Shown: positions 1,758 to 37,292 of the stretch, in pieces
How positions within the stretch are numbered: position 1 is the stretch's first letter
How the letters are laid out: every line of letters starts with the position of its first letter
Origin: Candidatus Woesearchaeota archaeon
GTDB taxonomy: Archaea > Nanobdellota > Nanobdellia > Woesearchaeales > UBA10216
Length of the DNA: 55,224 nt
Reading direction: 5' to 3'
Assembly (NCBI GenBank): GCA_016192945.1
Contig: JACPTE010000029.1
Span: 1-55,224, forward strand
Notes under the pieces: model-generated
Database searches by the model: none
Told to the model about the DNA's origin: nothing
The model's input: the letters and a program-made list of their open reading frames with translations, nothing else
Made by a program: the position numbers and the translations under genes

Positions 1758-1871
1758 AGCCCCGTAGTGTAGCGGCCAATCATCCCGGCCTTTGGCAGTG
1801 CAAACATGGCATGCAGCCATCGCCTGCACAGAAGAAAGCCGGGGACGGCGGTTCGAATCCGCCCGGGGCTA
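1758..1871 (+). tRNA. tRNA-Gln(TTG) with 41-nt intron at canonical 37/38 (1796-1836)
   Basis: AGCCCCG/CGGGGCT acceptor stem, CCGGC-CTTTGG^A-GCCGG anticodon arm, GTTCGAATC T-loop; BHB helix CTTT/GAAG with GGC and AAA bulges. Confidence 0.95.
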
Positions 1872-1915
1872 CTTTTTAAATAAAGTTTTTATAGCTGTCT
1901 TCTGTTAAAGCTACA

Positions 1916-3700: not shown

Positions 3701-3926
3701 CCTATTCTTCATAGTAATTGAAGCTATCCATTTGGTCAACCTGAACCAACAACTATATCACAACACCAAAAACTTTTTCTACTATTTAAGCTTTGTAGCC
3801 ATATAAGTAAAAATTATACCCAAGAAGTTACAAAAAGAGGGTCTGTCCGCCTGGGGCTATTCTTACTTTCTTACAAATCGTAAAATTTATATATCTGACA
3901 ATAATCTGCCTATTTGGGTGATAATA

Positions 3927-4190
3927 ATGAGTAATGTTGAATTTGCAAAAGCCTCATCCAAAGGGCAGGTAGTGATTCCGCAATCAATCCGGGAAAAGCT
4001 GGGAATTGAAGAAGGCACTCCTTTTGCAGTTTGGTCTAGTGGGAACCAGATTCTCTTTAAGAAAATGGATCTCCCGCAAAAAAGCTGGGAAGAAGTAGCT
4101 GCTCCTTTCCGAAGGATTGCTAAAGAACGTAAACTAACCTTTGATGATGTTGAAATGGCCATTAGAAAAGTCAGGTCAGCCAAAAAATGA
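3927..4190 (+). CDS. AbrB/MazE/SpoVT family antitoxin
   Basis: SSKGQVVIPQSIREKLGIEEG; ATGA overlap with the PIN gene. Confidence 0.9.
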   Translation: MSNVEFAKASSKGQVVIPQSIREKLGIEEGTPFAVWSSGNQILFKKMDLPQKSWEEVAAPFRRIAKERKLTFDDVEMAIRKVRSAKK

Positions 4191-4603
4191 TATCAGTAAC
4201 TCTTGATTCTAATGTTTGGCTTTCCGGCCTTTTGTGGCATGGAGAAGCATCAAAGGTAATTGCACTTGCTGAGTCAAAGAAAATATTAGTGTTCACATCA
4301 AAAGATATCCTTATTGAAATCTTCCGGGTTCTTCAGGAAGAGGAAAAGTTCCAGCTGTTGCTTGATGAAGAAGGGATGTATCCTGTAAATGTAATTGAAA
4401 AAATCGGGAATTTGTCCAAAATAGTCAAAATAAAAGAGCGGCTTAATGCGGTAAAAGCAGACCCTGATGACAATAAAATTATTGAATGCGCACTAAGCTC
4501 CAAATCACTCTTCATAGTAACTTATGACAACCATCTGTTGAAAATTGGCAGATATGAGTGCATAAAAATAATGCATCCAACTGACTTCCTGAAGAAATTT
4601 TAG
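4187..4603 (+). CDS. PIN-domain toxin (VapC-like)
   Basis: LDSNVWLSG, DPDDNKIIECA, IVTYDNHLL. Confidence 0.9.
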   Translation: MISVTLDSNVWLSGLLWHGEASKVIALAESKKILVFTSKDILIEIFRVLQEEEKFQLLLDEEGMYPVNVIEKIGNLSKIVKIKERLNAVKADPDDNKIIECALSSKSLFIVTYDNHLLKIGRYECIKIMHPTDFLKKF

Positions 4604-24298: not shown

Positions 24299-25486
24299 AT
24301 GAAAGTATTGATGTTTGGCTGGGAATTCCCGCCGCAAAGCACAGGCGGGCTCGGGACAGCATGCTACGGGCTTACAAAAGCCATGAGCAGGCTTGGAGTG
24401 AACATAACACTGGTCCTGCCAACAACAGAAAACATCACCCACGACTTTGTAAGGATAATAGGCGCAAACGTGAGGCTCAAGGGAATAAAATCACCCATCA
24501 GGCCATACATGACAGAGACTCAATACTCCAGGCAATACAGGAAAAGCTCATTATACGGCCAAAGCCTGTTTGATGAGGTATACAGGTATTCCATGGCTGC
24601 CGAGCAGATAGCCCGCGAGGAGGACTTTGACGTGATACACTGCCATGACTGGCTGACCTTTGAGGCAGGCATAAGGGCTAAAAGCATTGCCAACAAGCCA
24701 TTAATAGTCCATGTGCACGCAACAGAATTTGACAGGACAGGAGGGCTCAGCCTGAACAGGCACGTGTACGATGCTGAAAAAAGGGGAATGCAGGCAGCAG
24801 ACAGGGTAATTGCAGTAAGCAACTACACAAAAAACAAGATAATCTCGCATTACGGCATAATGCCTGAAAAAGTAAGCGTAGTCCACAATGCTGTTGACCA
24901 TGACAGGAGCCAGCCATCTGAGGATTCAGGACTGAAAAAGCACAGCAAGATAGTCCTGTTCCTTGGAAGGATAACCCTCCAGAAGGGGCCTGACTATTTC
25001 CTCTATGCTGCAAGCAAAATACTCCAGATAGAGCCGAACGTGAGGTTCATAATAGCCGGTTCAGGGGACATGGAGCAGTCCATAATCCAGAAGTCAGCAG
25101 AACTGGGTATATCAGACAAGGTGCTTTTCACAGGCTTTGTGAGCGGGAATGATGTCAACAGGGCATACAGCATGGCAGACGTATATGTGATGCCCTCAGT
25201 AAGCGAGCCATTCGGGATAACAGCGCTTGAAGCAATGAAAAACAACACGCCTGTAATAATATCAAGGAACTCAGGAGTCTCTGAAGTGATATCCCACTGC
25301 CTTAAAGTTGACTTCTGGGACATAAACCAGCTGGCAAACAAGATAATAGGAGTCCTGAGATACAGGGAGCTGTCAGAAACCATGAAAAACCACGCTGCCG
25401 GAGAGGTCTCAAGAATAAGCTGGTCAAACTCTGCTGAGAAATGCATAACAGAATATAACAGGGCTTTGAGAGGCGAAAATGGTTAA
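24299..25486 (+). CDS. GT4 glycosyltransferase
   Basis: GWEFPPQSTGGLG, HCHDW, PSVSEPFGITALEA. Confidence 0.92.
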   Translation: MKVLMFGWEFPPQSTGGLGTACYGLTKAMSRLGVNITLVLPTTENITHDFVRIIGANVRLKGIKSPIRPYMTETQYSRQYRKSSLYGQSLFDEVYRYSMAAEQIAREEDFDVIHCHDWLTFEAGIRAKSIANKPLIVHVHATEFDRTGGLSLNRHVYDAEKRGMQAADRVIAVSNYTKNKIISHYGIMPEKVSVVHNAVDHDRSQPSEDSGLKKHSKIVLFLGRITLQKGPDYFLYAASKILQIEPNVRFIIAGSGDMEQSIIQKSAELGISDKVLFTGFVSGNDVNRAYSMADVYVMPSVSEPFGITALEAMKNNTPVIISRNSGVSEVISHCLKVDFWDINQLANKIIGVLRYRELSETMKNHAAGEVSRISWSNSAEKCITEYNRALRGENG

Positions 25487-34029: not shown

Positions 34030-34356
34030 ATGAAAATAACCATAGACACTGAAAAAGACTCTGAGGAAGACATAAAAAGCGCTATACAGCTGCTTGAGAA
34101 GATAATAGGCGAAACTCCAATGCCCCCTGCTCCAGAGCCAGCCGAACCCCGGGAAACTGAGGAAGCCAAGCCAGCCACAATACAGGAACAGCCATCCGGC
34201 AAAGAGCAGGAAGAGGCAGAGCAGCTGCTGAACCAGATAATGAGAGGCAAAATAAAAAAGGGCGACAATGGCAAAAACAGGGAAGACAGCCTGCCAGGAA
34301 TCCCGAAATCAGTGAAGGAAGCCTACGAGCTGGCAGAAAATCTGGAAACATACTGA
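34030..34356 (+). CDS. Hypothetical acidic protein
   Basis: MKITIDTEKDSEEDIK...; stop is 1 nt from the archease start. Confidence 0.7.
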   Translation: MKITIDTEKDSEEDIKSAIQLLEKIIGETPMPPAPEPAEPRETEEAKPATIQEQPSGKEQEEAEQLLNQIMRGKIKKGDNGKNREDSLPGIPKSVKEAYELAENLETY

Positions 34357-34357
34357 A

Positions 34358-34789
34358 ATGGAAAAGAAATACGAATTCCTTGAGCACACAGCAGACGCCA
34401 AGTTCAGGGCATACGGAAAAAACCTCCAAGAGGCATTTGCCAATGCAGCCATAGCAATGACAAACATAATGTTTGATACGGAAAAAATAAAGCCGCTACT
34501 GAACAGGGCAGTGGATATAAAGGGAGATGACCTTAAGTCGCTGCTAGTGAATTTCCTCAGCGAATTCGTCTATCTGCTGGACGCAGAGGGATTCATACTG
34601 GGCAGGATAGCGAGCCTCACAATAAACAAGACAAGCCAGGGATACAGGCTGGCGGCAATAGCAAAGGGAGACAAATACTCAGACAAGTACGAAACAATGG
34701 GCGACGTCAAGGCAGTCACCTACGCAGAGATGGAGATAAGGGAGGAGGATAAGGGAAAGTGCTGGGTGCAGGTGGTTGTGGACATCTGA
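34358..34789 (+). CDS. Archease (RtcB cofactor)
   Basis: YEFLEHTAD, VKAVTY, VVVDI; directly upstream of rtcB. Confidence 0.95.
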   Translation: MEKKYEFLEHTADAKFRAYGKNLQEAFANAAIAMTNIMFDTEKIKPLLNRAVDIKGDDLKSLLVNFLSEFVYLLDAEGFILGRIASLTINKTSQGYRLAAIAKGDKYSDKYETMGDVKAVTYAEMEIREEDKGKCWVQVVVDI

Positions 34790-34840
34790 TTCTTCCTGGT
34801 TTGAATAACTTTTTAAAGAGAATTAGAAAACAACAATAAC

Positions 34841-36288
34841 ATGGAACTTAAGAAAATTTCAGACTATGAATGGGAGCTGCCTAAAAAAGAGGGCATGATT
34901 GTTCCTGCAAGGATTTTTGCAACAGAAAAGCTGATTGAGAAAATAAAGCTTGACAGGACATTGCTGCAATCTTCAAATGTAGCTCACCTAAAGGGAATCC
35001 AGAAATATTCTTATGTGATGCCTGACGCGCACGAGGGCTATGGTTTCCCGATTGGAGGCGTTGCGGCATTTGATGTGGAGCAAGGCATAATAAGCCCGGG
35101 TGGCATAGGATTGAACTGAAGGGCTCTTCAGTTCCCTAAGATGATGTCAACTGCGGGGTTCGCCTTGTTCACACAGACTTCACAATAGACCAAGTCATGC
35201 CAAAAAGAACAGAACTTCTCAAGGAGCTTTTTGAGGAAGTGCCTTCAGGGGTTGGAAAAGGAGGCATAACAAAGCTGACAAAAGAAGAGCTGCTTGACCT
35301 GCTTGAAAAAGGCTCTGAGTGGAGCCTTGAAAACGGATACGGGACAAAGGCAGACCTTGAAGCAACAGAAGAAAGCGGGAGAATGAAACAGGCAGACTCA
35401 AGGCAGGTTTCAGAAAGGGCGCTGGCAAGGGGAAAGCCGCAGCTCGGAACCTTGGGGGCTGGAAACCACTTCCTTGAAATACAAAGAATAGACGAGATAT
35501 ACGACGAGGAAGCGGCAGGCGTCCTGGGACTGGAAAAAGGAAAAATAACTGTCATGATTCACTGCGGCTCAAGGGGATTGGGCCACCAGATAGCTTCTGA
35601 TTACATTGAAAAAATGGAAAAGAAATACGGATACTCACACCTGCCTGACAGGGAGCTTGTGAATGCACCCTTGGACTCGGAGCTTGGCCAGCAATATTTC
35701 AAGGCAATGTGCGCAGGAATGAACTATGCGTTCGCAAACAGGCAGATGATAGTGCACTGGGTCAGGGAATCATTCAGGAAAGTCATGGGAACGAGCGAAG
35801 GCATGAGCCAGGTGTATGATGTCTGCCACAACATTGCAAAGATTGAGAATCACAAGGTAGATGGAGAGCCAAAGAAGCTATGCGTGCACAGGAAGGGCGC
35901 AACAAGGGCATTCGGCCCAGGGCACGAGGAGATGCCTGAGAAATACAGGAAAATAGGACAGCCAGTCCTGATACCCGGAAGCATGGGAACTGCAAGCTAC
36001 GTCCTGCTGGGAACAAGGAAAGCAGAGGAGCTGAGCTTCTCAAGCAGCGCACACGGCGCAGGAAGGGCATTAAGCAGGGCAGCTGCAATAAGGCAATTCA
36101 GGGGAGAGCAGGTTGCCAGGGAGCTGATGGCCCAGGGAATAGAGGTAAAGGCGGCAAGCTGGAAGGGAATAGCAGAAGAGGCAGTCCCAAGCTACAAGGA
36201 CATAGACGAGGTTATAAATACCACAGTAAAGTCAGGCATAGGAAAGGCAGTGGCAAGGCTCAAGCCGATCGGTGTTGTGAAGGGGTAA
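34841..36288 (+). CDS. rtcB: RtcB RNA ligase, join(34841..35111,35141..36288), 472 aa after intron removal
   Basis: [15 protein letters not shown], restored [50 protein letters not shown]. Confidence 0.93.
35112..35140 (+). other. Predicted 29-nt BHB mRNA intron in rtcB
   Basis: Helix TAGG/CCTA, bulges AT^T and AG^A, inner 9-bp stem GAACTGAAG/CTTCAGTTC; excision restores frame and motif. Confidence 0.88.
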
Positions 36289-36305
36289 AATTATACGCTT
36301 CCATT

Positions 36306-37292
36306 TTATTTGCAATTAACCTGTGCATACAGCTGCCTGGCAACTTCTGATGTTGCAGCAGGCAAATAAATGTAGAATGATGTGCCCTTTCCCAATTCTG
36401 ATTCTACTTCCATCCATCCCTTGTGCCCAATCACAGTCATCAGCACGCTCTCCACGCCAATCCCGTGGCCCTTAGAGCCCTTTGATGTGAAGTTCCTTTC
36501 CCCGAACACCTTCTCAAGGGTATCCTGGCTCATCCCAATGCCAGAATCTGAAACCCTGACTAAGACATATGATTCTCCGGAAATAGTAATTATATCCCTG
36601 GCTTCCATAGTTATCTCTCCACCACCGGGCATTGCGTCTATCGCGTTACCTATAAGATTCTTTAGTGCAGCCTTCAGCTTAAGCTCATCACCATACACGC
36701 TGAGAGCAGAATTATACAAGCCATTAACACGAACAGGAGCAGAATCTGGTGAATACCCTGCCAATTCATCAACAGCTTCCATGATTATCCTTTTCATAAA
36801 AAGCTCCTCAAATTTGTAATCCTCTGAAGGATTTTGGCCTGCCTGATCACCTGAATCGTCTTCAAGAGTCCTCAGAGATAACTCCAGAATCTCGTTGACT
36901 CGCCCATCAATAGTTTCCAGATAACCCAGGGCCTTTGCCTCGTCAAACCTGCCGCCCTTTATGTTCCTGATGAGCAGCTGTGCAAAGCCTTTTATTGGAG
37001 CAAGATAATTCTTGGCATCATGGGAGAAACGCCTCATCCTTTCCAATGCAGCTTCTGCCTTCCTTGCCCGCTTTTCTGACTCCCCTGCTGATATCCTCAG
37101 GCCTTCATAAGCTGCGTAAAGCCTCTGGTACTCACCCAGAAGCTGCCTGTAATCCTTATTATCCCGCACCAGGCCCTCATTTCCATTGAGCCCTGGCATT
37201 CGTGCAACTACTACATGCGCTGCACCCTGCGCATTAAGATGGGATGCCCTGCTGTACATTTCCTCTCTTACGACAATTCTTGCCAAACTCAT
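36306..37292 (-). CDS. Histidine kinase (HisKA + HATPase_c)
   Basis: SHDAKNYL, NLIGNAIDA, DSGIGM, GHGIG, GKGTSF. Confidence 0.92.
   Translation of the reverse strand: MSLARIVVREEMYSRASHLNAQGAAHVVVARMPGLNGNEGLVRDNKDYRQLLGEYQRLYAAYEGLRISAGESEKRARKAEAALERMRRFSHDAKNYLAPIKGFAQLLIRNIKGGRFDEAKALGYLETIDGRVNEILELSLRTLEDDSGDQAGQNPSEDYKFEELFMKRIIMEAVDELAGYSPDSAPVRVNGLYNSALSVYGDELKLKAALKNLIGNAIDAMPGGGEITMEARDIITISGESYVLVRVSDSGIGMSQDTLEKVFGERNFTSKGSKGHGIGVESVLMTVIGHKGWMEVESELGKGTSFYIYLPAATSEVARQLYAQVNCK

Follow-up and report, generated by a model that had tools for sequence, protein, structure and literature searches.

The gene rtcB, which encodes RtcB, the RNA ligase of the last step in tRNA splicing, is found in two pieces in the genome of a Candidatus Woesearchaeota archaeon. 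It lies on the + strand of the window, that is, the whole stretch of 55,224 nucleotides (nt) of contig JACPTE010000029.1 (assembly GCA_016192945.1). One piece spans 34841-35111 and the other 35141-36288, and 29 nt (35112-35140) separate them. The locus raises the question of what these 29 nt are and how an active ligase could be made from such a gene. An earlier note on this DNA had read them as an intron within a motif of the bulge-helix-bulge (BHB) type. We consider it very probable that rtcB carries a true archaeal BHB intron within the Tyr codon before its metal-binding Asp-x-x-Cys motif, and that the intron is spliced by the endonuclease EndA together with RtcB and its cofactor archease. 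This reading, already that of the earlier note, agrees with the position of the insert, the restoration of the frame, covariation, purifying selection, intron-less alleles, and the presence of EndA, archease and a single rtcB. The window's genome (G000) has 1.07 Mb in 41 contigs and is estimated to be 92.4% complete. The nearest named records of its relatives are labelled Candidatus Woesearchaeota archaeon.

The interrupted frame and the motif at its joint

Exon 1 (34841-35111, + strand) begins with an ATG and ends on the first base of the Tyr codon that is split; it matches positions 1-47 of the Pfam RtcB profile (PF01139). Exon 2 (35141-36288, + strand) contains the last two bases of the Tyr codon and then runs from the codon equivalent to Asp95 to the stop codon. 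Its frame, 35143-36285, matches positions 48-426 of the profile (E 6.7e-147), so that the profile passes from one piece to the other with neither gap nor overlap. The scores were 60.8 bits for exon 1 and 490.6 bits for exon 2, at a curated cut-off of 27. When 35112-35140 was deleted in a script, we obtained a 472-aa frame with the motif GGIGYDVNCG intact, which reproduces the G-Y-D-V-N-C junction and the frame length given in the earlier note. Each of the three reading frames contains a stop codon within the 29 nt, and the open reading frame (ORF) of exon 1 (34841-35119) ends at the TGA at 35117-35119 after 92 aa. Beyond the insert, rtcB of this genome has no other frame defect. We also considered an intein as the identity of the insert; this is ruled out, because the insert is out of frame and contains stops.

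The first residue of exon 2 aligns to Asp95 of the solved Pyrococcus horikoshii RtcB (1uc2_A), and the alignment spans residues 95-481. D95, C98, H203, H234, H329 and H404, which we take to be the metal ligands and the guanylylated histidine, are all identical in exon 2. The Asp and Cys codons (35143-35154) follow the intron and precede 35197, the position of the first in-frame start; the window sequence has no ATG, GTG or TTG in frame between the intron and 35197. The ORF that starts at 35197 encodes 363 aa and lacks both residues; what the earlier note said of this ORF and of the stop after 92 aa is correct. One might suppose that the 92-aa and 363-aa polypeptides assemble into an enzyme, in the manner of the split genes of Nanoarchaeum, and the ATG start on both ORFs favors such a view. 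However, the assembled enzyme would be without the residues aligned to D95 and C98 of 1uc2_A, and the conserved BHB would be left unexplained. We therefore regard a two-chain enzyme as very improbable.

The complete BHB motif occupies 35104-35143 of the + strand. A central helix of 4 bp is formed by TAGG (35106-35109) with CCTA (35135-35138). It is flanked by the 5' bulge A-T-T (35110-35112) and the 3' bulge A-G-A (35139-35141). On the intron side, an inner stem of nine Watson-Crick pairs (35113-35121 with 35126-35134) closes the loop GGCT (35122-35125). On the exon side there is an outer helix of a C-G and an A-U pair (35104-35105 with 35142-35143). That is, the core of a BHB, a 4-bp central helix with a 3-nt bulge on either side on opposite strands, is present, and every element listed in the earlier note is found in the sequence base for base. 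Cuts after the second base of each bulge remove 35112-35140 and rebuild the Tyr codon as T/AT. The 5' splice site after 35111 is placed by the BHB geometry and by the alignment with intron-less alleles. The predicted 29-nt intron as a whole (35112-35140, + strand) is delimited by these two and also by the ORFs and the spliced frame. The minimum free energy (MFE) fold reproduces the central helix, the 5' bulge and the inner stem, that is, the motif in part, and the covariance model R1, described below, matches the motif. An Rfam scan of 34700-35400 gave nothing relevant.

The same cut rule was applied blindly to the tRNA genes of the window's genome. It recovered the 16-nt intron that ARAGORN calls in tRNA-Gly(CCC) (G000:C5:73740-73828). 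For the other seven ARAGORN intron calls in this genome, the strict finder disagreed or found nothing, which is uninformative either way.

Probable introns around the catalytic motif in related genomes

The alignment of related rtcB loci, proposed in the earlier note as a search for inserts at the same codon with covarying stems, did reveal such inserts. Of the 26 genomes of the window's family that were searched, 24 have rtcB, and every locus was read. We call the position of the window's intron site B; the introns there are 29-34 nt long and split the same Tyr codon. Site A holds a second BHB intron of 29-32 nt, 24 codons upstream of site B in another Gly-Tyr context. Introns at site A, site B or both are carried by 13 of the 24 genomes. 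Three have site B only (G000, G001, G013), four have both sites (G010, G011, G014, G023), and six have site A only (G008, G012, G017, G020, G024, G041). Neither intron is found in seven (G003, G004, G005, G006, G015, G016, G019), an intein without an intron in three (G009, G018, G021), and a frameshifted deletion in one (G002). The family alignment shows that the intron-less alleles are colinear with the predicted splice junctions. After removal of the introns in a script, the spliced frames are 472-474 aa in the family carriers and 481 aa in L093, a record labelled Aenigmatarchaeota. The motif GGIGYD[VI]NCG is kept in every spliced carrier frame.

Introns were also found outside the family. 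The order-wide counts are lower bounds, because they come from the matches listed, the best 150 of 461, with 63 of 401 genomes re-examined. The tally of 388 of 401 order genomes with rtcB includes 15 genomes flagged unpublished. No named example rests on those, and three of them (G296, G337, G358) were left out of the re-examination. Site A is occupied in G357, G213, G317 (with a poor helix) and G279, as well as in G420, which belongs to another order of the class. Sites A and B are both occupied in G469, also of another order of the class, in L093, and in the metagenome contig L135. The insert of L129 at site A has a poor central helix and was graded relaxed.

Further sites lie close by. Site C1, between an Asp and an Ile codon, is used in G213 and G273. 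Site C2, two bases beyond C1, is used in a second contig binned with G023. Site D is a 33-nt in-frame insert with a TAG between a His and a Trp codon in G093, G135, G194, G273 and G399; one central pair is mismatched, and the site was graded relaxed. Site E in G135 (L123 398-450, G135:C6) is a 12-nt insert with a TAA within the Ile codon of GGIG, and it fits the BHB cut rule with a loop replacing the inner stem. As a spliced intron it would rank with the shortest of BHB type. Thus the finding goes beyond the earlier note: the rtcB introns are a lineage-wide feature, with at least six insertion sites within 30 codons around the catalytic loop, adjoining the site of inteins, and with up to two introns per gene. 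Over these sites the inserts are 12-34 nt long, the 5' exons end in AT at five of the six, and sites A and B share the context GGA T/AY G.

Several other inserts were noted or set aside. L065 (1380-1450), a record labelled Hadarchaeota, has a 30-nt in-frame insert with a TAA directly after the site-A Tyr codon; the insert's central helix of four self-complementary bases and its 5-bp hairpin make it BHB-like, outside DPANN. A pattern scan of metagenomes gave two stretches, and the pattern match L134 proved not to be rtcB-like. What look like inserts in L120, L121 and L126 are stretches of N and not introns. Several long "introns" proposed by the BHB finder were discarded by eye, because they would delete conserved residues.

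The comparison of sites bears on the idea that the insert is skipped in translation, by a bypass of the phage T4 gene 60 type or by frameshifting. A stem-loop does stand directly after the GGA codon, with a stop three codons on. However, the 3' end of the 29 nt offers neither GGA nor any other GGN codon for landing, the conserved Tyr would be lost in a hop from GGA, and all three frames of the insert have stops. The features that are conserved are those of a BHB, namely the 4-bp helix, the 3-nt bulges and the pairing of exon with intron, and six sites with differing codon phases all follow the BHB cut rule. Skipping in translation thus seems extremely improbable to us.

We next consider the covariation that supports a BHB intron. 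For site A, 12 sequences were aligned with MAFFT; 94.3% of the 192 cells were paired, as against 22-55% in slid controls, and 10 of 16 pairs had changed on both sides, which none of 500 shuffles reached. At site B (MAFFT, 7 sequences), where a one-base stem bulge misaligns three rows, 87.6% of cells were paired (slid controls 32-60%), and the covariation score was 0.187 compared with 0.119 in shuffled alignments (1/500). For the two sites taken together, 22 distinct introns were fitted to R1. In this alignment 95.2% of 352 cells were paired (slid controls 30-53%), 12 of 16 pairs had changed on both sides (30 of 500 shuffles reach that), and the covariation score was 0.721 compared with 0.225 (0/500). 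The central helix was 100% paired in the 22 introns by AU, UA, GC and GU types, with exon bases involved. Its exon strand covaries with its intron strand: in G010 the exon GAA is changed to GAG together with a T to C change in the intron. The outer pairs were kept in 95.5% of cells and also covary, the A-U pair of the window's genome being G-C in G469.

To build R1, 14 introns at site A of other genomes were used, and none came from the window's genome or from site B. On the window, 35104-35143 was the top of 18 matches (27.4 bits, E 6e-6), and the runner-up had 17.9 bits. R1 detected eight of the nine site-B copies offered, the one in L093 being missed; sites C, D and E and the insert of L129 escaped it. 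When 151 sampled genomes of the phylum were scanned, six of them, including G420 and G469, had matches at E <=1e-3, and every match was in rtcB. Over the window's family R1 returned the training introns only, plus weak matches at E >0.07. The runner-up in the window, at 4110-4146, was judged a chance match: it shares the end sequences, has no inner stem, and lies inside an intact AbrB-like ORF (3918-4190). This ORF, which is followed by an overlapping 138-aa ORF (4187-4603), is named from its sequence alone. The third match, 24918-24969, was rejected as well; it is inside an intact 395-aa ORF.

The exon bases around site B are also conserved. The 12 exon bases on either side are identical in the six Woesearchaeal site-B carriers. 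Among the three site-B-only carriers the proportion of synonymous differences (pS) is 0.64-0.74, that is, near saturation gene-wide, and the intron-less alleles vary freely at the flanking codons. The identical flanks fit a constraint of RNA structure on synonymous sites; a short co-conversion tract may be considered as an alternative.

Could rtcB of the window instead be a decaying pseudogene, or its insert an error of assembly or sequencing? The two ORFs and the in-frame stop would be expected in either case, and the relative G002 does have a frameshifted deletion in this region. The ratio of nonsynonymous to synonymous substitution rates (dN/dS) between carriers is, however, 0.03-0.06 over both exons, which means strong purifying selection. 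The comparison of G013 with G010, which differ by intron A at a synonymous divergence (dS) of 0.149, also falls within this range. The gene has no other frame defect and is the only rtcB in its genome. That is, neither the intact second copy nor the relaxed selection that the earlier note had named as grounds for doubt was found. In addition, the same insert with compensatory stem changes recurs in many separate assemblies, which excludes an assembly artefact. A pseudogene or an artefact is therefore highly improbable.

As for G002 itself, about 30 codons, covering the part of the gene that is rich in introns, are absent from its rtcB (L029 about 1498, G002:C61), and the frame shifts where the ends meet. 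These codons did not turn up in the rest of its 85%-complete genome. This rtcB is either a pseudogene or a misassembly.

The history of the introns was examined on an RtcB tree of 23 rows with four states. Intein-bearing genes, G002, the incomplete loci of G016 and G017, and the non-family carriers except L093 were left out of it. At least eight changes were needed, where the minimum possible is three. Shuffled labels needed 11.6 on average, and 1 of 200 shuffles was as low. Thus gain and loss have been frequent, yet carriers cluster. We take the rtcB intron of the window to be one of a family of small BHB introns that rtcB has repeatedly gained and lost.

Inteins of about 500 aa, with intein splicing and LAGLIDADG domains, were seen in RtcB of L118, L119, L116/L117 and about 35 genomes of the order. 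They sit between the Asn and the Cys of GYD[VI]N/C, three codons from site B. The catalytic motif of rtcB is a hot spot for both RNA-level and protein-level inserts.

The splicing machinery and the probable dependence of RtcB on itself

The archease gene lies directly upstream of rtcB on the same strand (34358-34789, +; Pfam PF01951, E 1.8e-42, profile 1-136 of 136), and the gap between the two is 51 nt. The genome has a single gene for EndA, whose 190 aa include both Pfam domains, and the best solved relative is chain 3iey_A; a second EndA subunit was not found in it. The other RNA-ligase families PF09414, TIGR01209 and PF13563 had no match in this genome, while control genomes were matched. 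In the window's family the EndA catalytic domain was matched in 24 of 26 genomes and archease in 26 of 26. Neither has stops or small splits inside it, and in one genome contig breaks affect the two genes.

With introns allowed, ARAGORN found 16 tRNA genes in the window's genome, eight of them with introns. Since the tRNA genes are few and half of them have introns, heavy use of the splicing pathway is suggested, and so are many unrecognised disrupted tRNA genes. Passages of PMC5829648 describe an alpha4-type EndA with an extra loop and many disrupted tRNAs in DPANN. One odd call, "tRNA-Stop(tta)" with a 41-nt intron at window 1758-1872, is absent from the default ARAGORN scan of the window.

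From these components the following course can be proposed. The primary transcript, probably an archease-rtcB message, would fold into the BHB at 35104-35143. The single EndA would cut each bulge between its second and third base, at 35111/35112 and at 35140/35141. The 2',3'-cyclic-phosphate and 5'-OH ends would then be joined by RtcB with archease to give T/AT and the 472-aa frame, and the 29-nt intron would be released, probably as a circle. Unspliced rtcB mRNA would yield only the 92-aa stub. Since the stretch from the intron to the Asp and Cys codons offers no start codon, active ligase would come only from spliced mRNA, and new RtcB would therefore depend on inherited RtcB. Thus, making new ligase probably needs pre-existing ligase. 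We infer here both the cleavage and ligation of the rtcB message and the position of RtcB as the only ligase. The earlier note had already proposed that RtcB synthesis needs EndA and existing ligase; this follows logically from the gene structure and fits the lack of matches to the three other ligase families in a genome 92% complete.

Several points weigh against this account. A strict BHB has a flanking helix of at least 2 bp on each side, and the outer helix here, with 2 bp, is at the minimal end. In the MFE fold the 3' bulge has 6 nt and the outer helix 5 bp, in preference to the 3-nt bulge with the 2-bp helix; both registers put the cut two bases 3' of the central helix. The energy is not exceptional: the MFE is -27.2 kcal/mol with a z of -1.20, and 22 of 200 shuffles are as stable. 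The covariation at site B alone is weaker, in that two-sided changes occur at 4 of 15 pairs, a number that 29 of 500 shuffles reach. The combined alignment of sites A and B was fitted to the model and hence leans towards the structure. Single-gene EndA, the kind found in this genome, is classically held to need strict BHB motifs. A scan of the genome for a BHB together with ORF joining gave 196 candidates in a first loose form, which were noise. A stricter form gave 24 matches, among them the rtcB intron with its 9-bp inner stem, as against 25 in the reversed sequence, and so is uninformative on other interrupted genes. That RtcB is the only ligase is claimed from searches for three families, in a genome 92% complete. 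Lastly, RNA sequencing runs for 34300-36300 were looked for and none was listed.

If the intron is real, it might also act as a regulator. That is, ligase synthesis would be set by splicing capacity, as the earlier note proposed, with positive feedback and possibly bistability. All the evidence for the intron applies equally to this view. Moreover, of the three splicing genes in the window's family rtcB alone is interrupted, the introns persist in many lineages, and no other ligase family was found among the three searched. On the other hand, the presence of the introns is patchy, with at least eight gains or losses on the 23-row tree and 7 of 24 family members intron-less, and such free loss speaks against a needed regulator. 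Positive feedback with tRNA halves competing for the ligase would not be expected to be homeostatic. Inteins, which are blind to RNA ligation, occupy the same motif, and this points to a hot spot of parasitic elements. We think regulation rather unlikely. Because presence is patchy and an intein site lies three codons away, the hot spot is the simpler view, and it is more likely that the rtcB introns are selfish or neutral insertions, tolerated at positions where anything but a precise loss would be lethal, than that they form a dedicated regulator.

We speculate further that mobile BHB mini-introns of 12-34 nt may land preferentially in rtcB. Their carriers extend over several orders, while endA and archease of these genomes are clean, and in the carriers the outcome would be an autocatalytic loop. 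Such mini-introns might originate through reverse splicing, by EndA and RtcB, into the message of the ligase itself, and then become fixed. We hold this to be unlikely. If it were true, RtcB would have to be inherited as protein for its gene to be readable, a heritable requirement carried by protein in a cell whose genome has about 1 Mb.

Relation to known introns and inserts

The closest comparison is the BHB intron in the cbf5 pre-mRNA of Crenarchaeota, reportedly described by Watanabe in 2002 with its splicing demonstrated experimentally. Like the cbf5 intron, the rtcB intron is short, lies in the coding frame, has to be removed for a functional protein, and presents a BHB-like form for EndA recognition. 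Both are patchy among relatives with gain and loss, as passages of PMC2738675 (Yokobori 2009) describe for cbf5, and both host genes belong to RNA metabolism. In contrast to cbf5, the host here is the ligase of the same pathway, and the rtcB intron is predicted from sequence. It occurs in DPANN (Woesearchaeota-like) archaea with a single-gene EndA, whereas the Crenarchaeota have a heteromeric EndA. Furthermore, rtcB has up to two introns per gene and its many sites fall within 30 codons. The Cbf5 model TIGR00425 had no match in the window's genome, while 14 of 14 control genomes were matched. The gene is missing from the assembly, or else this lineage lacks it or has a very divergent copy.

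Passages of PMC7714728 name cbf5 as the only additional archaeal BHB intron reported before and add a case in the 5' untranslated region of HVO_1309; those of PMC12397907 and PMC13149111 hold nothing further on BHB introns of mRNA. The HVO_1309 intron of Haloferax volcanii is, like that of rtcB, an EndA substrate in an mRNA. It differs in lying in an untranslated region, in being from a euryarchaeon and in having nothing to do with the ligase gene. The pre-tRNA introns of archaea, among them that of tRNA-Gly(CCC) in the window's genome, share with the rtcB intron the geometry of the motif, the predicted cut positions and the enzymes. The rtcB substrate differs from them in being an mRNA, so that the exon parts of the helices double as codons and fix synonymous sites.

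HAC1/XBP1 mRNA is known for unconventional splicing, with cleavage by IRE1 and, in metazoa, ligation by RtcB, and is a proven stress-regulated switch. It resembles the rtcB case in having a small frame-changing mRNA intron, a protein endonuclease, and exons joined by RtcB. It differs in that IRE1 acts on twin stem-loops and the product is a transcription factor, while in rtcB EndA would act on a BHB and the product is the ligase. Inteins of RtcB, such as the one in P. horikoshii PH1602, interrupt the same catalytic motif and are likewise removed precisely after expression. Unlike the rtcB intron, they leave the protein, are about 500 aa long with a LAGLIDADG domain, and are independent of EndA and RtcB.

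We class the element with the archaeal BHB introns in protein-coding mRNA. It is unusual in that its host is its own ligase, in that its sites are clustered at the catalytic loop, and in its occurrence in DPANN. The earlier note knew of no description of an intron in rtcB, and our search of the full-text literature, which did not extend to most subscription journals and supplementary files, likewise found none. Among the literature searched, rtcB would be a second protein-coding host gene for BHB introns, in a different archaeal phylum from cbf5. A gene that is unreadable without its own product would be a self-referential expression loop outside the ribosome and the polymerase. The many sites, gains and losses in one gene offer a natural data set on how BHB introns spread. 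In practice, gene callers split or truncate rtcB in these genomes, and protein-based surveys of the tRNA-splicing capacity of DPANN would undercount or mislabel it.

Finally, on the other side of rtcB, a 328-aa ORF on the - strand (window 36306-37292) converges on the rtcB stop codon, and its C-terminal part looks by eye like a histidine-kinase ATPase domain.

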